From a virus (lineage: Duplodnaviria; Caudoviricetes): a stretch of DNA of 41,277 nt. Below the pieces are notes generated by a model. It searched no databases. It was not told where the DNA came from and saw only the letters and a list, made by a program, of their open reading frames with translations. Positions 17,735-31,925 of this stretch are shown here, piece after piece. The stretch spans positions 1 through 41,277 of IMG/VR virus record IMGVR_UViG_3300009095_000005, one strand, 5' to 3'. Positions within the stretch are counted from its first letter, which is position 1; every line of letters starts with the position of its first letter. Position numbers and translations under genes: made by a program.

Positions 17735-17929
17735 ATGACAACAGACAACGAAACAGAAGTCCTCAAGAGGGAGGCCAAGCTGCATGAGCTTGAACGCGAC
17801 AAGGAACGCTTTGAACGAGGCGAACGGACCTCACGCGCTCCTGTAGTCCTCACCATTAAAAGCAATGCGGACCTATTTAGGGATGCAGGGAGCATTCTTC
17901 AGCAGTTGATGGCGGGAGGTGCGCGATGA
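17735..17929 (+). CDS. Hypothetical protein
   Basis: Coupled to recT by ATGA overlap. Confidence 0.55.
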   Translation: MTTDNETEVLKREAKLHELERDKERFERGERTSRAPVVLTIKSNADLFRDAGSILQQLMAGGAR

Positions 17930-18588
17930 GCGACGAGGAACAACAACTCGACCTCACGCCAGCCCAACAGCAGGCGCCAGAGACCACTGAGCAGACCGCT
18001 TTGACTGTTCCTGATGCGGGACAAGTAGGAGCCTGGTGGACAACAGAGAAGGGCTTCGCGCTACTTCAGCGGCAAGCCCGCCTCTTATCGGAAAGCAAGC
18101 TGGTTCCAAAGGAATACCAGCGCAACCTGCCAGACTGCGTTATCGCCCTGTCGATGGCCTACCGCATGAACGCTGACCCGATGGCGGTCATGCAGAACCT
18201 CTACATTGTCCACGGCAAGCCTAGCTGGTCCTCTCAGTTCATCATTGCTGCAGTCAACTCCTGTGGCCGCTTCAACCCCTTACAGTTCGAGCTATGGGGA
18301 GAGGGCGACGACTTCTCATGCATGGCATGGGCGACTGCCAAGGTATCCAAGGAGCGTTATGAAGGCCCGCCGGTATCCATCGGCATGGCAAAGGATGAAG
18401 GGTGGTTCGGGAAGAACGGCAGCAAGTGGAAGACCATGCCGGAACTGATGCTGCGCTACCGGGCAGCAACCCTCTTTGGACGCCTCTACGCCCCTGAAAT
18501 CCTCATGGGTATCAAGACCTATGAGGAAGTCATAGACATAGGAGCGGAGGCTGTGAAACAAACGGAAACCCTAAAGCTGGAGGTTTGA
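17926..18588 (+). CDS. recT: RecT-like single-strand annealing protein
   Basis: SKLVPKEYQ..DCVIAL..DPMAVMQNLYIVHGKPSWSS; SKWKTMPELMLRYRA. Confidence 0.75.
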   Translation: MSDEEQQLDLTPAQQQAPETTEQTALTVPDAGQVGAWWTTEKGFALLQRQARLLSESKLVPKEYQRNLPDCVIALSMAYRMNADPMAVMQNLYIVHGKPSWSSQFIIAAVNSCGRFNPLQFELWGEGDDFSCMAWATAKVSKERYEGPPVSIGMAKDEGWFGKNGSKWKTMPELMLRYRAATLFGRLYAPEILMGIKTYEEVIDIGAEAVKQTETLKLEV

Positions 18589-18589
18589 T

Positions 18590-19477
18590 ATGACACCAAC
18601 ACCCTTCTCAAAACCCCACCAGACCGGCTGCATCATCGGAGAACCCAACGAGGTTTACCATGCAGACCCAGCCCTTAGCTGTTCGCAGCTCAAGGTATTC
18701 GCCAACCGGCCAAGGCTCTACAAGGCGCAGTATATCGACAAGACGTACCAACCCAAGCGCAGTGATGCCTTGGACATTGGTAGCGCCCTGCATGACCTGG
18801 TGCTGCTTGGCAGGGACCACTACACCAAGAGCTACGCCGTAGCACCCCACTGTGACCGCCGCACTAACAAGGGCAAAGAAGTATGGCAGGCGTTCTGTGA
18901 CGAGGCCAACGGCAAGACCGTCCTGAAGGATGAGGAAGCCGAGCAGGTAGAGCGCATGTCCGAAGGCATCCGAAGCCACATTGAAGCATCTGCAATCTTG
19001 CAAGGCGGTATGCCCGAGGTGACATGGCGCACACCTCAACTGAAGGGACTACCAATAGCCCTACAGTGCCGCACAGACCATCTGAAAGAAGCGGCAGGCT
19101 TCGGCTACACGGTAACGGATATAAAGACCGTCAGCAGCCTAGAAGGATTCTCCAAGACCATCGCAGACTACTCCTATCACATGCAGGCAGGGTTCTACCT
19201 CCTGACAATCGCAATCGTGATGGGAGGCAACGCCGATCTGGACAGCCTCTTTGACTACGTTGACGGCTGGCAGTTCATCGCCGTTGAAAAGCAGGAGCCT
19301 TATGAAGCAGCAGTCTTCACCCTTGCCCGCCATGCAATCGAACAGGGCGCACGCGAGGCCCTAGACTGCATCAAGCGTCTCTGCGGTTGTATCAACTCAG
19401 GTAAATGGCCGATGGCCTACCCTGACGTTCGCGCAATCGACCTACCAGCCTGGTATTACACGCGGGAGGTGGCATGA
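18590..19477 (+). CDS. RecE / exonuclease VIII-like PD-(D/E)XK nuclease (DUF3799-like)
   Basis: YHA..ALSCSQLK, GSALH, CRTD..DIKT, YHMQAGFY, FIAVEK. Confidence 0.85.
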   Translation: MTPTPFSKPHQTGCIIGEPNEVYHADPALSCSQLKVFANRPRLYKAQYIDKTYQPKRSDALDIGSALHDLVLLGRDHYTKSYAVAPHCDRRTNKGKEVWQAFCDEANGKTVLKDEEAEQVERMSEGIRSHIEASAILQGGMPEVTWRTPQLKGLPIALQCRTDHLKEAAGFGYTVTDIKTVSSLEGFSKTIADYSYHMQAGFYLLTIAIVMGGNADLDSLFDYVDGWQFIAVEKQEPYEAAVFTLARHAIEQGAREALDCIKRLCGCINSGKWPMAYPDVRAIDLPAWYYTREVA

Positions 19478-25970: not shown

Positions 25971-26255
25971 ATGACCACTGAGACAGCAAAGCCAGCCATA
26001 GAACAGTACGACAACGCCCTTAGATACATGGTCCCCTCCAGCAAGGGAGATAGCGTTTACCTGGTCGATCTAGGGGCATACGGAGGCAACGGAATGTGCG
26101 ACTGTCCCGACTTCCAGTGCAGGCACTCCCCTATACTGAAGACTGGCGCTAAACCAAACGACAAGCTACGCTGCAAGCATATCCGAGCAGCCAGGACGCA
26201 CCTGACAGACAGGATAATCAAACGACTACGCCACAATGCCAGCCAAGAAACCTGA
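25971..26255 (+). CDS. SWIM zinc-finger-like protein
   Basis: YLVDL..CDCPDF..CKHI. Confidence 0.7.
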   Translation: MTTETAKPAIEQYDNALRYMVPSSKGDSVYLVDLGAYGGNGMCDCPDFQCRHSPILKTGAKPNDKLRCKHIRAARTHLTDRIIKRLRHNASQET

Positions 26256-26724
26256 CACACAGCTAGACACCACAGATCGCTTCCCAAGAGAGTCATACTT
26301 CAAGAAGAAGCACCCTAAGACATACGACCGGGTGGTGGCGGAACTGGCGGCAGGCAAAGGCCCCTACACCGTAGCCAAAGAATTAGAGGTAGACGTAAGC
26401 ACCGTCTACCGCATCAGAGAGCGTGAACAGCTCAGCATCCAGACCACAAGGGAACGACTGGCAGAGTTATGGGGCATGGCGTCAGAGATGGGAGCAGAAC
26501 GGTTGGTAGAGGTATTAGCCGACAAAGAGAACGGACTGAAAGCCGCACAGATACCCATAGCAGCCGCTATAGCAATGGATAAGTGGACCCAGGCAACAGG
26601 AGGCGTTACCCATACCATACGCCATGAGAAAGCCCTGTCTCCCGAGGACATCAAGAACCTGATCGAGCAGGCAGCACAGACCAAGCAGGCAGAGGCCATA
26701 GACGTAGAGACAGAGGAACCCTAA
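26236..26724 (+). CDS. HTH protein, candidate terminase small subunit
   Basis: HTH PYTVAKELEVDVSTVYRI; helical core; C-terminal AIAMDK..GGVTHTIRHE..IDVE. Confidence 0.5.
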   Translation: MPAKKPDTQLDTTDRFPRESYFKKKHPKTYDRVVAELAAGKGPYTVAKELEVDVSTVYRIREREQLSIQTTRERLAELWGMASEMGAERLVEVLADKENGLKAAQIPIAAAIAMDKWTQATGGVTHTIRHEKALSPEDIKNLIEQAAQTKQAEAIDVETEEP

Positions 26725-26733
26725 CGCCCAACA

Positions 26734-26972
26734 TGCTACCTGCTGATACCACAACTCCCCGTAACCCCTGTTAGGTAAGGGAAACAGCTAGTCGATTGGA
26801 AATCGTGTGTGCCCCAAAAGGGCACCGAGGGTTCGAATCCCTCCCTCTCCGCTCTCTTCAAGCTAAATAGCGGGTCTTCGGCTACCTGAGACAAGTATCG
26901 CAGAAGACAGAAAACACCCAGTTTATGCCTTTTTACGTTGTGAAACGCTGAAAACTGATACCATCTGCTACC
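26734..26972. repeat. Integrase arm-type sites: paired TG(C/A)TACC repeats on each side of the core
   Basis: tgctacc 26734 and tgatacc 26744; tgatacc 26956 and tgctacc 26966; 10-bp period in both pairs. Confidence 0.75.
26793..26852 (+). other. attP core: 3' part of tRNA-Ser(GGA), not a full tRNA
   Basis: cga-TTGGAAA-tcgtg anticodon arm, long variable arm gtgccc-caaaa-gggcac, T arm gaggg-TTCGAAT-ccctc, acceptor strand cctctccg; D arm and 5' acceptor strand absent; integrase adjacent. Confidence 0.92.
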
Positions 26973-26974
26973 AA

Positions 26975-28114
26975 ATGGGGAGCATCGTAAAGGTAGAGGG
27001 TAGGGCTAAGCCGTGGAGAGTGTACTTTTACACGCCAGAGGGTCAGCGGACGACCAAACACTTCGCCAAGCGCATCGAGGCAGAGGAATGGGTGAAAGAG
27101 TTTGCCCGAGAACGTCACTGGCAAGACCTGAAAGTAACTAGCAACGAGCGGATGCTGATAGCAGAGTTGCGGGACGCCTGCGAACGATCCGGTATCAGCG
27201 TTGATACCGCCATGCGCGAGACCATTGACAAGGTAAAGGCGCAGGCACCCGAGGAGCTGCCCGTATGGGAGGCAAAGGAACGCTACCTGACAGACTGCGA
27301 GCGCCGGAACCTACGCCCCACCACCGTAGAAGGCTACAGAAGGGCCATAGAAACGTTTATAAGCCCCCTGGAAGGCGTCGTGAGTGACATCACAAGGGAA
27401 GACCTGCTGCAATGGCTTCTGAAGCGATACAGCAACGACACAACGCGCCACATAGCCCGCCGTTCCCTGCTGGCATGGCTAAGATGGTGTCAGTCTCACC
27501 GATACACCGCAGTCGATTGGTCCCGCCCCCTCACATGGAAAGAGACCCTATCGGACGAAACCAGAGTCGCGATCCTTCAACCCGCCCACATGGCAAAGCT
27601 ACTGCACAACGCACCACGCAAGATGCAGCCAGCCCTCGCCCTGATGGCATTCGCAGGCATCAGACCCGACGAGATAGCCGCCCGCACAACAAAGCCGGTG
27701 CTACTCTGGCAGGACATCGACACCCACCGCCGCATCATCCGCATACGTGGAGAGGTCAGCAAGACCCGACGTTACCGGGAACTGCACGAACTGCCCGAAA
27801 ACATATGGGTATGGATAGAAAAGACCCGCCCCCCTAAACAGGAAGCGGGTCGTGTTCTCTCAACTAGGTATAACGGGTTCAGGAGCGCCCTGCGGCACCT
27901 GGTCGGGACTCTGGACCTCCCCCCGCTGACAAAGGACGTTCTGCGCCATTCATTCGCCTCCTACGCATACCATACGCTAGGCATGGAGCACGCAATGGAG
28001 GCGATGGGGCACAGCAATGCAAAGACGTTCGCCAAGTACTATAAAGGAGCTGCCAGCCCTACCCTTGCGCGTCAGTGGTTCTCGATCCTGCCGGCAGACG
28101 CTCCCAAGCAGTAA
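26975..28114 (+). CDS. int: Tyrosine integrase
   Basis: AGIRPDE (R), SKT (K), DVLRHSFAS (xxxRH), MGHS, YY; N-terminal arm-binding domain. Confidence 0.95.
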   Translation: MGSIVKVEGRAKPWRVYFYTPEGQRTTKHFAKRIEAEEWVKEFARERHWQDLKVTSNERMLIAELRDACERSGISVDTAMRETIDKVKAQAPEELPVWEAKERYLTDCERRNLRPTTVEGYRRAIETFISPLEGVVSDITREDLLQWLLKRYSNDTTRHIARRSLLAWLRWCQSHRYTAVDWSRPLTWKETLSDETRVAILQPAHMAKLLHNAPRKMQPALALMAFAGIRPDEIAARTTKPVLLWQDIDTHRRIIRIRGEVSKTRRYRELHELPENIWVWIEKTRPPKQEAGRVLSTRYNGFRSALRHLVGTLDLPPLTKDVLRHSFASYAYHTLGMEHAMEAMGHSNAKTFAKYYKGAASPTLARQWFSILPADAPKQ

Positions 28115-28283
28115 CAATCAAGCTCCGCACTATCTCAGACTGTGGGGCATTGTAATGCGTTGCAAGCTCCTGCAACTGCTCATGGGTGCGCTCCCCTATC
28201 CTCAAGTTGAGGTTCTTCCTCGATAGCGCCCGAGGGTCGGGTTTCGGCCCCCGCTTCTTAGGCTTGCGTTCTGGTTCACTCAT
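28059..28283 (-). CDS. RHH protein with an AT-hook-like N-terminus
   Basis: KKRGPKP; NLNLRIGERTHEQLQELA..QSEIVRSLI; RBS gggag. Confidence 0.7.
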   Translation of the reverse strand: MSEPERKPKKRGPKPDPRALSRKNLNLRIGERTHEQLQELATHYNAPQSEIVRSLIVTAWERLPAGSRTTDAQG

Positions 28284-28340
28284 CGTAAGGTTCTCCCTGT
28301 TAAGTCGCGGCGTTGTGTAACGTCACGGTCTTGATTCCTC

Positions 28341-28377
28341 GCCCGGCTGGATTGGTCTCCAGCCGGGCATTTTCTTT
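28341..28377 (+). terminator. Intrinsic terminator downstream of int
   Basis: gcccggctgga-ttggtc-tccagccgggc followed by attttcttt. Confidence 0.6.
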
Positions 28378-28438
28378 AGTGCCGTGGCAAAGAAGCACTC
28401 TGGCTGTGGTGGGTTGTGATTTCGATGGTCATTGTCCC

Positions 28439-28861
28439 TCAACGATGCTCCCGCAGTTTTAGTGGGATGCCGTGGCGCTTTGCATAGCGGTAAACGGCAG
28501 TCGTTGATAGCCCGTCGGTCTGTGCTATGTCAGCCAACGTGCGCCCCGGCCATTCCGAGCGGCGGCGCTCGAGCGCGAGCTTTAGCTTTAGTCGCTCCTT
28601 GGGTTTCTTCCGGTCCCAGCGAAGCGCAGACACGATTGTGATCGCCCCTGTTTTCTCAGGATAGGACGGGCGGCGATGCCAGGAGCTTGCCGGGTCAGCC
28701 AGCCATGATTCTAGCGTTGACTGGCTCACGTGGAGCCGCCGGGCGGCCACCGCCTGGCTCACCTCGGCTGCCTCGATGGCTCGGCGCATCTGGCGCTGCC
28801 ACGAGCGAACGGCGTCTGGGTGAGGCCAGATGTGCTTGGCTAGTTGGCGGCCGCTTCCCAT
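28439..28861 (-). CDS. Double-HTH (XRE-like plus second HTH) protein
   Basis: SQAVAARRLHVSQSTLESW; TLADIAQTDGLSTTAVYRY; RBS ggagg. Confidence 0.7.
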   Translation of the reverse strand: MGSGRQLAKHIWPHPDAVRSWQRQMRRAIEAAEVSQAVAARRLHVSQSTLESWLADPASSWHRRPSYPEKTGAITIVSALRWDRKKPKERLKLKLALERRRSEWPGRTLADIAQTDGLSTTAVYRYAKRHGIPLKLREHR

Positions 28862-28887
28862 CGTTATTCCTCCGTTGTGTTAGTGGG

Positions 28888-29178
28888 TTACTGGTGTGCG
28901 GGCGTCAGATAAGCAGCCGCGACAGCCTCCGCAAACTCTGCGGGATCGCTGTTCACATGGCCGGGGACAGTCACTTGCCAGCGGTCGGCAACGTCGCCCC
29001 TCGAGCCGTCAGCCTTACGAGGCAGGAGCGTGACTTTCATTTCCTTCCCCTGCTGGCGTGCGCTACCATCAGCCACGATGGTTTCCGCACCAGGACGGAA
29101 TACCCTGAACGGGTGCGAGCCGCCGCCTTCGCTGGCGTATGCTTCAATCTGGTATCCGGTGTTAGTCGTGATCTTCAT
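28888..29178 (-). CDS. Hypothetical accessory protein
   Basis: Leader gaggaatcacgaacATG. Confidence 0.65.
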   Translation of the reverse strand: MKITTNTGYQIEAYASEGGGSHPFRVFRPGAETIVADGSARQQGKEMKVTLLPRKADGSRGDVADRWQVTVPGHVNSDPAEFAEAVAAAYLTPAHQ

Positions 29179-29216
29179 GTTCGTGATTCCTCAACTGTGT
29201 AAGTGTGGTGTGACAA

Positions 29217-29270
29217 GGCCACCGTGGCCCTGCGGTCAGCCCTCGCAAGTGGAGAGCTGAGGCAGGGTCA
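29217..29270 (-). ncRNA. Conserved long hairpin motif, copy 1
   Basis: UGACCCUGC-C-UCAGCUCUC-CACUUGC-GAGGGCUGA-CC-GCAGGGCCA..GGCC. Confidence 0.6.
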
Positions 29271-29274
29271 TCAG

Positions 29275-29511
29275 TCATCGATACAGCCCCCGGCGGTCAC
29301 ACTCTTCCTCTGTAAGCTGATAGTTGTCGCCGTAGCCGTCCGTGACCTTCTTGTATGACTCGGCAGTGATCTCGTAGACGTGGTCTAGGTCGGCATCGGT
29401 GACGTCCCAGTCAATCCAGTTTTTGGCGTCCTGAAGGGCGTCTTCCTTCGTTGTTCCTGTGCCAAATGCGCTACCGTCGAGGTGTGGAATGTATGCGTAG
29501 TATTTGCTCAT
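29275..29511 (-). CDS. Small acidic accessory protein
   Basis: AFGTGTTKEDALQDA; leader aggagttaagaccgATG. Confidence 0.7.
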   Translation of the reverse strand: MSKYYAYIPHLDGSAFGTGTTKEDALQDAKNWIDWDVTDADLDHVYEITAESYKKVTDGYGDNYQLTEEECDRRGLYR

Positions 29512-29540
29512 CGGTCTTAACTCCTAATCAATGTATTTGT

Positions 29541-29605
29541 GTGGCTAGTCTCGTCAGTGGAGCGGGAGCCACCCGCAACCAGACCGGCGCAAGGCCGGTT
29601 TCGAC
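29541..29605 (-). ncRNA. Type II hammerhead ribozyme with pseudoknot
   Basis: Minus strand GUC-GAAA-CCGGC(CUUGC)GCCGG-UC^-UGG..GCGGG(UGGCU)CCCGC.CCA-CUGACGA-GAC-U-AGCCAC: full catalytic core, three stems, loop I complementary to the 3' tail. Confidence 0.92.
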
Positions 29606-29607
29606 AT

Positions 29608-30003
29608 TCAATCCCACCAGAAGCGGGCCTCGATCATATGCAAGCCCCGATGCTCCCGAATCTCATGGCTGAACTCATCGGCATGGTAGCGCCGCGAGAG
29701 TCGCTTGAGTTGATACCCCGCCTCAATCACCGCAGCCGCATCAAACGCGCTCCCCTCATAGTAGATCACCAGCGAGCACTCATTGCCAACATACACCCGC
29801 CCGTTAAGCGTCGGCGTGCTGTCCAGAATAGCACCAGGAAGCGTCGCAATGTTATTAGGGATGTCATTATATGGATCGAAGCGGGTAAGCACTTCTGCGG
29901 CCTCCTGTCGTTCCAGTTGCACGCGAAACCCAAGGCATGAGCGCAGCAGCGCAAGTGTAGCGTCAACCTTGGAGATAGTGGGGATGGTCATTTGTCCGTT
30001 CAT
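29608..30003 (-). CDS. Hypothetical accessory protein
   Basis: Leader aaggaatcaagaccATG; C-terminal ADE..RFWWD. Confidence 0.7.
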   Translation of the reverse strand: MNGQMTIPTISKVDATLALLRSCLGFRVQLERQEAAEVLTRFDPYNDIPNNIATLPGAILDSTPTLNGRVYVGNECSLVIYYEGSAFDAAAVIEAGYQLKRLSRRYHADEFSHEIREHRGLHMIEARFWWD

Positions 30004-30028
30004 GGTCTTGATTCCTTTTGTGTTCGCT

Positions 30029-30084
30029 GGCCTTCATTGGCCCTGCATGGAGCCGCCACAGTGGGCAGCTCGGTGCAAGGTCAA
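30029..30084 (-). ncRNA. Conserved long hairpin motif, copy 2
   Basis: UUGACCUUGCA-CC-GAGCUGCC-CACUGU-GGCGGCUC-CA-UGCAGGGCCAA..GGCC. Confidence 0.6.
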
Positions 30085-30091
30085 GCGGGCA

Positions 30092-30433
30092 TCAGTCGTA
30101 AAGCCCCTCCTCCTCCTGCCGGATCAGGATAAGGTTTTCATAGTAACAGGACTGGCGCTTATCAGCAGCAAGCCGCTCCTGCCGTGTAACAACCCCGAGC
30201 CGCTCCGCACGACTGATGTCCATCTCACCAATAAAGCGGATCATCCGGGGCTGTTGCAGCGCCTCCCACAATGCCTTGCGCTCAAAGCGGTTCAGCGTGA
30301 ATGGTGCACCGATACGGTTTGCGCGCAAGAATTGTTCTAGCGTGCGTCCGTGGATATGGTTGCGGTATTCATACCGGGCTTGCGCCAGCGTGAAGCAGTG
30401 CTTGCGGCGTGTGGTCGTGGTCATGGTCTTCAT
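30092..30433 (-). CDS. First gene of the accessory operon (Arg-rich hypothetical)
   Basis: Leader gaggaagtaagaccaATG at 30433; track start 30577 runs through the promoter. Confidence 0.65.
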   Translation of the reverse strand: MKTMTTTTRRKHCFTLAQARYEYRNHIHGRTLEQFLRANRIGAPFTLNRFERKALWEALQQPRMIRFIGEMDISRAERLGVVTRQERLAADKRQSCYYENLILIRQEEEGLYD

Positions 30434-30484
30434 TGGTCTTACTTCCTCGCCAGCTTCCGGCGTCATTGCCTGCTGACAATCGAC

Positions 30485-30513
30485 ACTCAACCACACCCAC
30501 CAAACCCCGTCAA
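30485..30513 (-). promoter_or_regulatory. Sigma70-like promoter of the accessory operon
   Basis: TTGACG-17 nt-TTGAGT, TG just upstream of the -10, AT-rich UP-like tract. Confidence 0.6.
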
Positions 30514-30579
30514 CACATATTTTCGCTTTTTCCTCATTTTCCCCCGCAACCCGCATAAACAGCGGGACTTTGACCACTC

Positions 30580-31190
30580 AAAATTATATCCTTGACATCC
30601 ACAAAATACCACTGACTCTTTAGGCGAAGCCGAAGAATGAGGCAGAGCCGTCAAGGTAGCGGCGCAAGCCCTGCCGACTCTTACAAGCGTGAGCGCAGAG
30701 AGGCAGCAGCCAAGAGCTACCTGCACTCCACTACACCGCAAGGCATACAAGCGTAGCGATACAGGGACCACACCAGGTCAACCAGTAAGACAAGCAACCA
30801 ATCAGGGATAATAGACATCAACCCATCAGCATACGTTGATATGATCGATCCAATCGCTTTGTGCCTCCCTCAAAATTTAGACTTTGACTAATCAAAATAG
30901 ATCGACGAATATAAGCTCACGGTGAGTAATTTATCGTTGGCGAAAACATGCACACGCTTGCAAGACGACCCTAAGCCCAAGTGGATCAACGGGATAACAA
31001 CCCAATGCGTAGCTTTTCGAGAGGGGCACAGTGGCTATTATGTCTAATCCACACGCTTTCAACGCCCCAGGTGCCTCGATCATAGGGGGGAGGGGGTGCG
31101 CTTCGTGGGGGGCCTCCGAACCTCTAACTGATTACCGCGTTCACGAAGGAATGGGAAAACACACCTGATAACACTGTAAGGAGTAGAGAG
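30580..31190. other. Long non-coding region, candidate packaging/terminus region
   Basis: No credible ORF; ends in G-runs (31085-31112) where strand skew flips; upstream of the terL operon. Confidence 0.5.
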
Positions 31191-31925
31191 ATGGGAGAAG
31201 AGATGGCACAGAACATACGGGAAGACGGGATGGTGGAGAAGGTTGAGGGGATGGAGGGAGTGATGTGGGAGCAGGAGTTATTGAAGGCGTTGAAGATTGG
31301 GAAGAGCCAGTTGAGGACATTTCGGAGGGAGGAGTTGGAGAAGGGGGTAGATTGGTGGATGGAGTGCAAGACGGGGAAGAGGATGGCTGTTAGGTATTCT
31401 GAGGTTGGGGTGGAGAAGGTGCTGGGGGCGTATAAGAAGGGTGTTAGGAGCAGCAGTTTGGGGAAGGGGGAATATCGGACGAAGAAGGGGACGAGGACGA
31501 AGGTATTTGTTGAGGTTGGAGGGGTTGAGCATCATTTGCCGAAGACGAGTCCTGTTGTTGAGTTGGGGGATTGGGATTTTGGAGGGGGTGGTAAAAAGGA
31601 TACTACCGGCGAAGAGGGGGCGAAGGTGGAGTTGTTTATTGGTGTGGAGGGTGAAGCTGATTCCTCTGCGGAGTATGTGGCGGAAGAGACGATAGACGTG
31701 CGTGTGAGGCCGATTGCGTTGAGGGTTGGGAAGCTGTGTCCTAATGAGAGGCTGGTGATTGTTGTGGAGGACAGGGAGTATGGGGATGGGGAAGAGCTGG
31801 TGAGTGGGAGGATGGTATTGCCGCCTAGGATGAGGGGGTATCTAAGGAAGGTGGGACGGAGGGTGTGGGGGGTTAAGGAGGAAGAGGGGTTGTATACGTG
31901 GGGTCCTGGGCCAGAGGGGGTGTAA
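31191..31925 (+). CDS. Hypothetical G/E/V/K-rich protein, possible N-terminal HTH
   Basis: EQELLKALKIGKSQLRTFR..GVDW; extremely G-rich coding strand; start uncertain. Confidence 0.55.
   Translation: MGEEMAQNIREDGMVEKVEGMEGVMWEQELLKALKIGKSQLRTFRREELEKGVDWWMECKTGKRMAVRYSEVGVEKVLGAYKKGVRSSSLGKGEYRTKKGTRTKVFVEVGGVEHHLPKTSPVVELGDWDFGGGGKKDTTGEEGAKVELFIGVEGEADSSAEYVAEETIDVRVRPIALRVGKLCPNERLVIVVEDREYGDGEELVSGRMVLPPRMRGYLRKVGRRVWGVKEEEGLYTWGPGPEGV

Follow-up and report, generated by a model that had tools for sequence, protein, structure and literature searches.

Hammerhead and hairpin elements in the spacers of a phage accessory-gene operon

The purpose of the self-cleaving ribozymes that phages carry between small genes is still debated (PMC6765202). 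One phage operon pairs a ribozyme with a non-ribozyme element in neighboring slots, behind one promoter and with one shared leader. The operon lies in a 41,277-nt stretch of viral DNA, the whole of which we call the window (IMG/VR record IMGVR_UViG_3300009095_000005; Caudoviricetes). Our leading explanation, in which our confidence is about even, is that this is an accessory-gene operon with constant spacers and variable genes, whose transcript would be cut into hairpin-protected pieces: spacer S2 would cut itself and spacers S1 and S3 would be cut by RNase III. Both types of element are predicted to yield messages that are protected at each end. If the elements serve to produce capped units of one gene each, then either should be able to stand in for the other, and mutations in the second pairing partner of the hairpins should destabilize the downstream message. 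The spacers also mark where ORFan genes exchange in a phage of a little-studied host group, and they offer a route to collecting candidate host-interaction genes.

The operon and its phage

The features of the operon and its surroundings are as follows, with coordinates in the window.

30485..30513, minus strand: promoter-like site
30434..30450, minus strand: leader copy preceding gene 1
30092..30433, minus strand: gene 1, 113 aa
30026..30090, minus strand: S1 hairpin motif (interrupted hairpin 30038-30083; 3' arm 30038-30046; second partner 30026-30032)
30004..30025, minus strand: A/C tract and shared leader preceding gene 2
29608..30003, minus strand: gene 2, 131 aa, predicted to fold (Atlas pTM 0.84)
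29539..29606, minus strand: S2 type II hammerhead fold with a pseudoknot between loop I and the 3' tail; cut predicted after 29582 (GUC)
29512..29538, minus strand: A/C tract and leader variant preceding gene 3
29275..29511, minus strand: gene 3, 78 aa, acidic
29213..29270, minus strand: S3 hairpin motif (interrupted hairpin 29225-29270; 3' arm 29225-29233; 9-bp second partner 29213-29221)
29179..29212, minus strand: A/C tract and shared leader preceding gene 4
28888..29178, minus strand: gene 4, 96 aa
28862..28887, minus strand: S4, a short A/C tract and leader
28439..28861, minus strand: gene 5, 140 aa, two HTH stretches (Pfam)
28341..28368, plus strand: S5 hairpin, resembling an intrinsic terminator of the integrase mRNA; the operon strand lacks a U-tract
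28300..28340, minus strand: extra full leader copy, then an 8-codon micro-ORF; likely a cassette remnant
28059..28283, minus strand: gene 6, 74 aa, weakly RHH-like; antisense overlap with the 3' end of the integrase gene
26975..28114, plus strand: tyrosine integrase converging on the operon; matches phage integrases
26797..26853, minus strand: attP-like 3' part of tRNA-Ser(GGA)
17926..19477, plus strand: RecT-like annealase and RecE-like exonuclease (RecT, E 5.8e-74; exonuclease VIII, E 2e-56), candidate proteins for exchange at spacers that are short and shared

A preliminary description of this locus proposed that one promoter precedes six small genes. The six genes are present as minus-strand open reading frames. 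For gene 1, we chose the start (ATG at 30433) from its Shine-Dalgarno site; the ORF finder starts it at 30577 and the public gene call is 154 aa. The promoter is less clear: there is a TTGACG box, a 17-nt gap, and an extended TG, but the -10 box is weak (3/6) and a standard scan listed no promoters in 26500-31500. A looser custom pattern has a single match in the genome, at 30513, and the surrounding region (30443-30585) is conserved in one X2 contig from a related phage. The common leader is confined to this operon: with up to 4 mismatches allowed and both genome strands searched, all five matches fall within it. Also as described, S1, S2, and S3 each have a structured element after a stop codon, followed by an A/C tract (A+C content of the tracts, 0.68-0.82) and the leader. 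The proposal that the transcript is cut into single-gene messages needs to be narrowed, though. S4 is just 26 nt and has no structure, so genes 4 and 5 would remain joined, and in S5 there are two micro-ORFs and, on the plus strand, the likely terminator of the integrase gene. Therefore, only genes 1-3 would give single-gene messages.

Little is recognizable in the cargo, which by analogy probably consists of host-interaction genes; none of our results points to the host-takeover or anti-defense role that the preliminary description suggested. A database search found no homologues of genes 1-3 except themselves, and genes 1-4 match no family in Pfam, PHROGs, or NCBIfam at E 0.01. Comparing the structural model of gene 2 (pLDDT 64) with PDB and BFVD gave no similar fold at E 0.001, and the cargo has no match under E 0.06 in the loci that we fetched. 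A similarity between gene 3 and an Opitutales prophage gene (9/20 identities, E 0.002) is too weak to rely on. As for the two regulators that were thought to end the operon, gene 5 does have a double HTH (Pfam E 5.5e-05, below the cut-off), but the case for an RHH protein in gene 6 is weak (HicB, E 0.011; PHROG repressor, E 0.001).

The phage is temperate, with a likely host in the Verrucomicrobia (Verrucomicrobiota); we infer the host from an exact 53-nt match between the att site and a Puniceicoccaceae genome. Its capsid has three viral relatives (at 48-54%) and relatives in 8 of 401 Opitutales genomes. The module is missing from one relative (L123), the L191 and L194 stretches that we listed showed no operon of this kind, and L193 was compared by tblastn alone. 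Among 27 candidate viral stretches we found no relatives of the integrase, and the operon DNA has no match in 50,697 phage records.

Gene turnover at constant spacers

Contigs from relatives (X2, X3, and X4) retain S1, S2, and the leaders, and the flanking sequence differs. S1 is retained with other flanks in all three: X3 contig 10 matches 30000-30090 with unlike sequence on both sides, and X2 contig 6 has a third upstream flank. X4 contig 13 departs 8 nt inside gene 3. X2 contig 1 retains 29172-29194 (part of the tract and leader before gene 4), 28861-28887 (S4, between two unlike stretches), and 28326-28377, and it skips both of the intervening genes. X2 contig 8 has a different start downstream of the same promoter, and a version of gene 5 that is about 88% identical lies behind a different spacer in X2 and X4. 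These contigs are 150-1200 nt long, have a depth of 2-8, and come from a single study; the two joints have sides under 30 nt, a length that calls for caution.

So in short contigs from one study, the genes behave as the swappable units that had been proposed: the spacers are constant and the genes at their edges change. Fixed genes beside unconserved spacers, the pattern that was named beforehand as contrary evidence, is not what the relatives' contigs contain. We think it quite likely that a spacer plus leader is a shared block of 25-90 nt at which genes exchange. That pattern is visible in the contigs; the exchange itself would likely proceed via the phage's RecE/RecT pair. It had also been suggested that ribozyme and hairpin replace each other, but in the relatives' contigs there is no exchange of hammerhead for hairpin behind the same gene. 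A common processing role is plausible, given their position in the same slot and the same predicted hairpin-capped products.

The hammerhead and the hairpin motif

The core, stems, and pseudoknot of a type II hammerhead are complete in S2, which the preliminary description had named as a hammerhead. The core comprises CUGACGA, GAAA, and a GUC triplet at 29584-29582. Stem II has 3 bp, stem III has 5 bp, and stem I has 3 bp plus a 5-bp extension; loops cap both stem I and stem III, and stem II is open. The pseudoknot is a 6-nt complement that aligns to the pseudoknot letters of Rfam RF02276. A strict hammerhead descriptor matches only S2 on both strands of the 41-kb window, and the two indels in relatives' S2, read by hand, fall within loop III and next to the stop codon. 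From the intact core, we predict with confidence that S2 cuts itself at the site listed above. Its score against RF02276 is 26.9 bits (E 0.016), under the gathering score of 37. Hammerheads elsewhere occupy a like slot: among 29 distinct descriptor matches from 29 loci, most of which had been picked by the hammerhead pattern, all have a stop triplet (in any frame) at most 14 nt upstream and 27 have an SD-ATG within 50 nt. We also note that the RF02276 gathering score is a curation threshold, not a catalytic feature, and that the low-confidence columns of S2 are in the extended stem I.

S1 and S3 have related folds, in agreement with the claim that they carry two copies of one hairpin. Each is a G+C-rich hairpin of about 18 bp, interrupted by an internal loop and containing an A-C mismatch, and is more stable than shuffled sequence (S1, z -4.24, 0/200; S3, z -2.02, 9/200). 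Comparing the predicted folds by hand, we found three two-sided changes and one one-sided change that keep the pairing. The likeness in sequence is modest: the local score of 36 was reached by 32 of 5000 shuffled pairs, and although no tile of the window except S3 itself scores higher against S3 than S1 does (38), an unrelated tile reaches 35. Folding energy does not tell us the strand of the motif, since the plus-strand fold is the more stable one (-37/-38, against -33/-32 on the minus strand). Neither hairpin is among the 10 terminator-like sites on the two strands, with no U-tract after the stem, and no Rfam family matches the hairpin. A CUGAUGA ahead of S3 was considered as a hammerhead core and rejected: there is no GAAA, and the counterpart stretch ahead of S1 is not kept in relatives.

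The 3' arm of each hairpin has a second, downstream partner, with which it could form a different hairpin at the 5' end of a cut product. Few shuffled sequences equal this 5' hairpin (7/1000 for S1, 17/1000 for S3). In the same test, two spacers of the phage record G404 gave 21/1000 and 3/1000, with one spacer (G404a) chosen by a pattern that required part of the partner and the other (G404b) chosen by eye. For a long hairpin of another array (L133), the second partner is not significant (247/1000).

G404, where there is no match to RF02276, is the one candidate homologue that we accepted from searches elsewhere. It came from a later hairpin pattern, as locus L345, with at least 119 loci and at least 91 distinct matches, 25 of which were inspected; two other candidates (L308 and L248) were checked and not accepted. 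The first hairpin pattern also gave at least 119 loci, and none of the 45 best-folding ones that we inspected was in context. A second pattern gave three loci, none accepted; a further one gave six, one of which was G404 again and the other five of which were not accepted. A metagenome search gave 16 loci, two from the window's own contig and 14 others, none in context. We also built model R1, whose alignment mis-registers the inner stem of the hairpin. It scored G404a at 14.6 bits, lower than a match in a coding region (17.7 bits). It matched 4 of 37 family genomes (E 0.001-0.014), none motif-like, and gave weak matches in 15, 61, and 6 further sources; the best of these, L161 (18.9 bits), had itself entered via the metagenome hairpin pattern. 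Finally, of 33 loci with the leader pattern, none has an upstream hammerhead or motif by eye.

How the spacers might act

If our leading explanation is correct, a single transcript would run from near 30478 through the six genes towards the integrase. The hammerhead cut would give the gene-2 message a 3' end made of stem III, and the gene-3 message a 5' end made of stem I plus the pseudoknot. We tentatively suggest, with slightly less than even confidence, that the internal loop of the S1 and S3 hairpins is nicked on its 3' side to give hairpin-capped products. Host RNase III would be the enzyme; RNase III and RNase E/G are encoded in all five Opitutales genomes tested, including the att-matched one. 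The upstream message would keep an inner hairpin of 8-10 bp, and the freed arm would, by computed refolding, pair with its second partner as a 5'-terminal hairpin. The products would carry gene 1, gene 2, gene 3, and genes 4-5 (perhaps with 6); in every one, the A/C tract would be single-stranded and the leader that binds ribosomes would be the same. Internal loops can restrict RNase III to a single cut that leaves a protective 3' hairpin (PMC1540722).

Alternatively, S1 and S3 might remain uncut and be two-hairpin insulators or stabilizers, which we consider possible but rather unlikely. The ribosome ending the upstream gene would hold the 5' arm, the inner hairpin would block 3' exonucleases, and the second hairpin would hold the A/C tract and the leader free; through its 5' arm, the element may be coupled to upstream translation. 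Consistent with this, the motif's TGA serves as the stop codon in G404a and lies 7-11 nt past the stop codon in S3 and S1. In both uncut G404 spacers, the two-hairpin state is dominant (arm paired upstream, 0.02 and 0.21), and masking 12-15 nt after the stop moves S3 to that state (0.95) and S1 part-way (0.45-0.48), so a ribosome that is terminating could keep the long hairpin from forming. Also, the helices are short for RNase III: two helical turns, with an internal loop allowed, are typical of E. coli substrates. In the E. coli rules, the proximal and distal boxes should be permissive, and G-C pairs at some positions are inhibitory (PMC1540722). On the other hand, uncut S1 and S3 prefer the long hairpin (0.65 and 0.79), and the complementarity of the 5' arm to the 3' arm is kept in both copies in the window, with a U-G to C-G change. 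We are doubtful of a bolder reading, in which S1 and S3 are an undescribed cut-and-cap RNA module that phages use interchangeably with hammerheads, whether as a ribozyme of a new, protein-free class or as a ribosome-gated RNase III site. If gated, the terminating ribosome would toggle the RNA between a long hairpin that can be cut and a two-hairpin form that cannot, which would make processing depend on upstream translation.

It seems quite improbable that S1 and S3 are a new class of self-cleaving ribozyme, such as a three-way junction, that directly replaces the hammerhead. Their slot is hammerhead-like, as where twister sister, pistol, and hatchet were found (PMC6765202). A three-way junction in S1 is 2.1 kcal/mol above the minimum, and conservation in relatives begins at 30088-30090, just ahead of its outer helix. 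But in S3 the junction is 3.7 kcal/mol worse and in a different register, the conserved letters are nearly all paired, we see no conserved pseudoknot by eye, and no Rfam ribozyme matches S1 or S3 at E up to 10. Compared by eye with the consensus, folds of the HDV-like, twister, pistol, and twister-sister types did not fit.

Integron attC sites have the cores RYYYAAC and GTTRRRY and go with an IntI-type integrase. It would be very surprising to us if the hairpins were attC-like sites, folded as single-stranded DNA for the adjacent tyrosine recombinase. Hairpins do follow stop codons in a cassette-like array beside such a recombinase, they fold as DNA on either strand (about -15 kcal/mol), and structured motifs in consecutive spacers of gene arrays, a trait shared with integron attC arrays and the DUF1874 motif, can be attC sites (PMC5737381). 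Yet we see no attC core by eye in S1 or S3 and there is no Rfam match; the recombinase matches phage integrases and adjoins a tRNA attP; exchange points lie at spacer edges and in hairpin-free leaders; and the identical slot is taken by a hammerhead.

The claim that this is an undescribed system does not stand as a whole, as segmentation of prophage operons with variable genes by hammerheads was published in 2011. Perreault et al. described prophage hammerheads that flank single genes or short blocks whose identity is not constant, and proposed processing into single-gene mRNAs; three tandem arrangements were cleaved in vitro and one, flanking ardA, in vivo (PMC3088659). Our locus is similar in having a type II pseudoknotted hammerhead between small, variable phage genes near an integrase. 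Compared with those clustered hammerheads, it differs in having a single hammerhead with an uncatalogued hairpin in the two neighboring slots, a likely Verrucomicrobiota host, and exchange points at spacer edges. In T4-type phages, PeSL cassettes are likewise small conserved intergenic blocks that act as recombination points in variable regions and shuffle ORFan genes (Arbiol et al. 2010, PMC2839356). As described there, PeSLs are promoter and terminator units, whereas this genome has one promoter-like site, and S1-S4 have no terminators or U-tract and resemble processing elements. In the literature that we searched, titles and the openings of abstracts do not name the S1/S3 motif or an interchange of hammerhead and RNase III sites; the supplements of PMC3088659 and PMC5737381 could hold it. 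What is uncatalogued in the resources that we searched is just the hairpin motif, together with its two-partner design.

Phage T7 early mRNA has RNase III processing sites between its cistrons. Like those sites, S1 and S3 are intercistronic interrupted hairpins in which one cut would leave the upstream message with a hairpin that protects its 3' end. Unlike them, S1 and S3 are shorter (about 18 bp), G+C-rich, mixed with a ribozyme, and cleaved by prediction, and their second downstream partner would cap the 5' end.

The operon and its cargo

The locus is a real, well-formed phage accessory operon that is punctuated by a ribozyme. Its anatomy is directly observed: the six small genes of the preliminary description are present as minus-strand open reading frames (ORFs), numbered from the promoter end, and spacers S1 to S5 follow genes 1 to 5.

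30433 down to 28059, minus strand: six ORFs, converging on the integrase gene
30485-30513, minus strand: promoter-like site
28376-28432, minus strand: micro-ORF of 18 amino acids in S5, behind an SD
28300-28326, minus strand: micro-ORF of 8 amino acids in S5, behind a full leader copy
27823-27851, minus strand: terminator-like site
28341-28368, plus strand: terminator-like site

In the promoter-like site, the -35 box is good and an extended TG is present. The site is the only match in the genome to a looser custom promoter pattern, but its -10 box is weak (3/6) and the standard promoter scan listed nothing in the operon region. So the single promoter that had been proposed is only partly upheld. 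The shared leader stands: there are five occurrences with up to 4 mismatches, every one inside the operon. S4 is without structure, and S5 is of a different kind from S1-S3; its two micro-ORFs are likely remnants of deleted cassettes. Given the terminator-like sites, the integrase and operon transcripts would overlap in antisense for about 550 nt, which might possibly lead to retroregulation of the integrase.

Genes 1-3 have no homologue besides themselves, and genes 1-4 have no family match. The product of gene 2 is predicted to fold, yet it gave no named structural match. An anti-defence role of the cargo could be proposed only by analogy to ardA (in the available text of PMC3088659) and ardC in other arrays. 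As for the two terminal regulators that had been claimed, gene 5 does contain two HTH stretches, but the identification of gene 6 as an RHH protein is weak. Upstream of the operon promoter, at 30569-30583 and 30883-30897, we noticed an operator-like near-palindrome, TTTGAC-N4-TCAAAA. These are its only two copies in the genome (at most 1 mismatch), and they are candidate sites for the operon's HTH or RHH protein.

Hammerhead and hairpin spacers

S2 folds as a type II hammerhead and is complete: besides the core, it has all three stems and a 6-nt complement for the pseudoknot. It is the only match in the window to a strict type II descriptor, and although its Rfam score (26.9 bits, E = 0.016) is below the gathering score, we agree that this spacer contains a hammerhead fold.

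The hammerhead-punctuated layout is common and already known. A pattern derived from S2 found 25 viral loci, several of them with arrays; one (L129) has six hammerheads in successive spacers, each flanked by a stop codon and by an A/C tract and shared leader. Across 29 distinct descriptor matches at 29 loci, a stop triplet lies just upstream in all 29 (reading frames unchecked) and SD-ATG lies just downstream in 27, with the caveat that the descriptor overlooks some copies and may count others twice. Hammerheads above the cut-off occur in 2 of 151 Opitutales genomes. Genome G074 has a type II hammerhead directly 3' of an ArdC-type anti-restriction gene (L192, 7057-8045), and G039 has two prophage-like regions in which a small-gene operon converges on an integrase and the hammerhead is preceded by different genes in each. 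These regions of G039, an Opitutales genome (L362, 3300-6200, and L363, 4200-6650), also show repeated promoter-leader cassettes and a duplicated gene, and, by eye, 22 of the first 23 letters of the L362 hammerhead are the same as in S2. In the hammerhead arrays of L129, L133, and L137, single slots are filled by other, unclassified structured spacers.

What we have seen of Perreault et al. 2011 (PMC3088659) describes the same arrangement, with hammerheads beside variable prophage genes and mRNA segmentation proposed, and cleavage was demonstrated in their arrays. The earlier suggestion of an undescribed system is thus not supported. According to the consulted part of a 2019 review (PMC6765202), the purpose of such ribozymes is still to be defined.

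What seems new here is the spacer element in S1 and S3, which is uncatalogued and whose two-partner design offers a clear test. Both spacers fold into a hairpin of about 18 bp that is interrupted by an internal loop and contains an A-C mismatch (z = -4.24 for S1 and -2.02 for S3). With E up to 10 allowed, neither has a meaningful match in Rfam; the single model that S1 hits is for a eukaryotic miRNA (E = 3.4 and 8.6). The sequence likeness of the two is modest, being equalled by 32 of 5,000 shuffled pairs, so the claim that they are copies of one motif also depends on the shared fold and slot and on three pair changes, each two-sided and read by hand. Because folding energy favours the plus strand over the minus, the working strand is taken from position. 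Among the matches inspected from five pattern scans and model searches, there was one outside candidate, in the 62-kb phage record G404. It begins on a stop codon, with an A/C tract and SD-ATG after it, and the spacer that follows there is of like design. A model of the motif (R1) does not single it out, so the case for homology to the S1/S3 motif comes from its context.

The 3' arm of the long hairpin has an alternative partner, a strand further downstream, in S1, S3, and both G404 spacers. If the RNA is cut in silico on the 3' side of the internal loop, the upstream piece ends in a hairpin and the downstream piece starts with one. Computed hammerhead cleavage yields a product pair of this kind too. 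Shuffling the downstream 31-32 nt reached the 5' hairpin in 7 of 1,000 trials for S1, 17 for S3, and 21 and 3 for the G404 spacers (one of which, G404a, was partly selected for its second partner), as compared to 247 of 1,000 (27 nt) for a long hairpin in the L133 array.

Two side observations concern other sequences. Four virus records (L030, L043, L063, and L106) share a recurring conserved sequence, a chance find that is seemingly unrelated to the hairpin. Also, three gut metagenome contigs (L151, L154, and L159) have a perfect 18-bp inverted repeat nested in a longer imperfect one, and the L151 repeat has no Rfam match.

Gene turnover and proposed transcript processing

Short contigs of related phages are present in three runs of one study (X2-X4). 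Contig 10 of X3 matches window 30000-30090 except for 2 differences and 2 gaps, and both of its flanks are unlike the window. By eye, its upstream flank closes with TAG at the first base of the spacer, and its downstream flank is an open frame in which the difference sets in at the second codon. The upstream flank recurs in X4 contig 14, and X2 contig 6 has a third upstream flank. In X4 contig 13, the end of gene 2 and the hammerhead are retained, and the sequence departs from the window 8 nt into gene 3 (only 14 loose letters). X2 contig 1 has the leader of gene 4, S4, and the S5 hairpin but skips both intervening genes. Gene 5 is about 88% identical in X2 and X4 and lies behind a different spacer, and X2 contig 8 has the same promoter region with another start behind it. 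Thus, we observe that the spacers are retained as the genes around them are replaced and that the switch points lie at the edges of spacers, which is the turnover that had been anticipated. The evidence is direct though thin: the contigs have depths of 2-8, two joints have sides of under 30 nt, three ends are loose, and four pieces lie outside the matches listed. Nowhere among these contigs does a hammerhead take the place of a hairpin behind the same gene.

We propose that the spacers serve transcript processing; in this model, we infer the transcription, every cut, the enzyme, and the recombinase. S2 is predicted to cut itself, and S1 and S3 would likely be nicked once by the host's RNase III. 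Internal loops allow a single RNase III nick (PMC1540722, in the portion available), and RNase III and RNase E/G are encoded in 5 of 5 Opitutales genomes. Every product message would be protected at both ends. The expected products are g1, g2, g3, and g4-g5(-g6), so single-gene mRNAs, as proposed earlier, are predicted for the first three genes, but genes 4 and 5 would stay joined across the structureless S4. The same spacers would also offer short blocks of homology at which genes are exchanged, likely via RecE/RecT, much as the T4-type PeSLs do in the accessible text of PMC2839356.

The main rival is that S1 and S3 remain uncut and act as insulators or stabilisers, which we consider a real but lesser possibility. 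Uncut S1 and S3 do favour the long hairpin, while the G404 spacers favour the two-hairpin state. If the nucleotides under a terminating ribosome are masked, S3 fully and S1 partly shift to two hairpins. It seems improbable that S1 and S3 are a new ribozyme, and we give very little credence to an attC-like site.

The phage and its probable host

The 41,277-nt record has a 63-nt terminal repeat, so the assembly is probably circular and complete. Among its genes are those for an SU10-type capsid, a large terminase, DnaB, a RecT/RecE pair, and a tyrosine integrase. We found no close relative in the virus or phage collections that we searched. A 53-nt stretch adjoining the integrase has one exact match in the genome collection, the tRNA-Ser(GGA) gene of an uncultured Puniceicoccaceae genome. 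This stretch is therefore a putative attP core, and the host would belong to the Opitutales (Verrucomicrobiota). A related capsid gene is present in 8 of 401 Opitutales genomes.

The att-integrase-operon module (26236-31100) is bounded by an HTH gene, possibly the small terminase, and by a G-run at 31085, which may mark the start of packaging. If so, one end of the packaged DNA would carry the operon. The relative L123 (316-1037) has a like gene (23% identity) and the same G-run about 180 nt apart.
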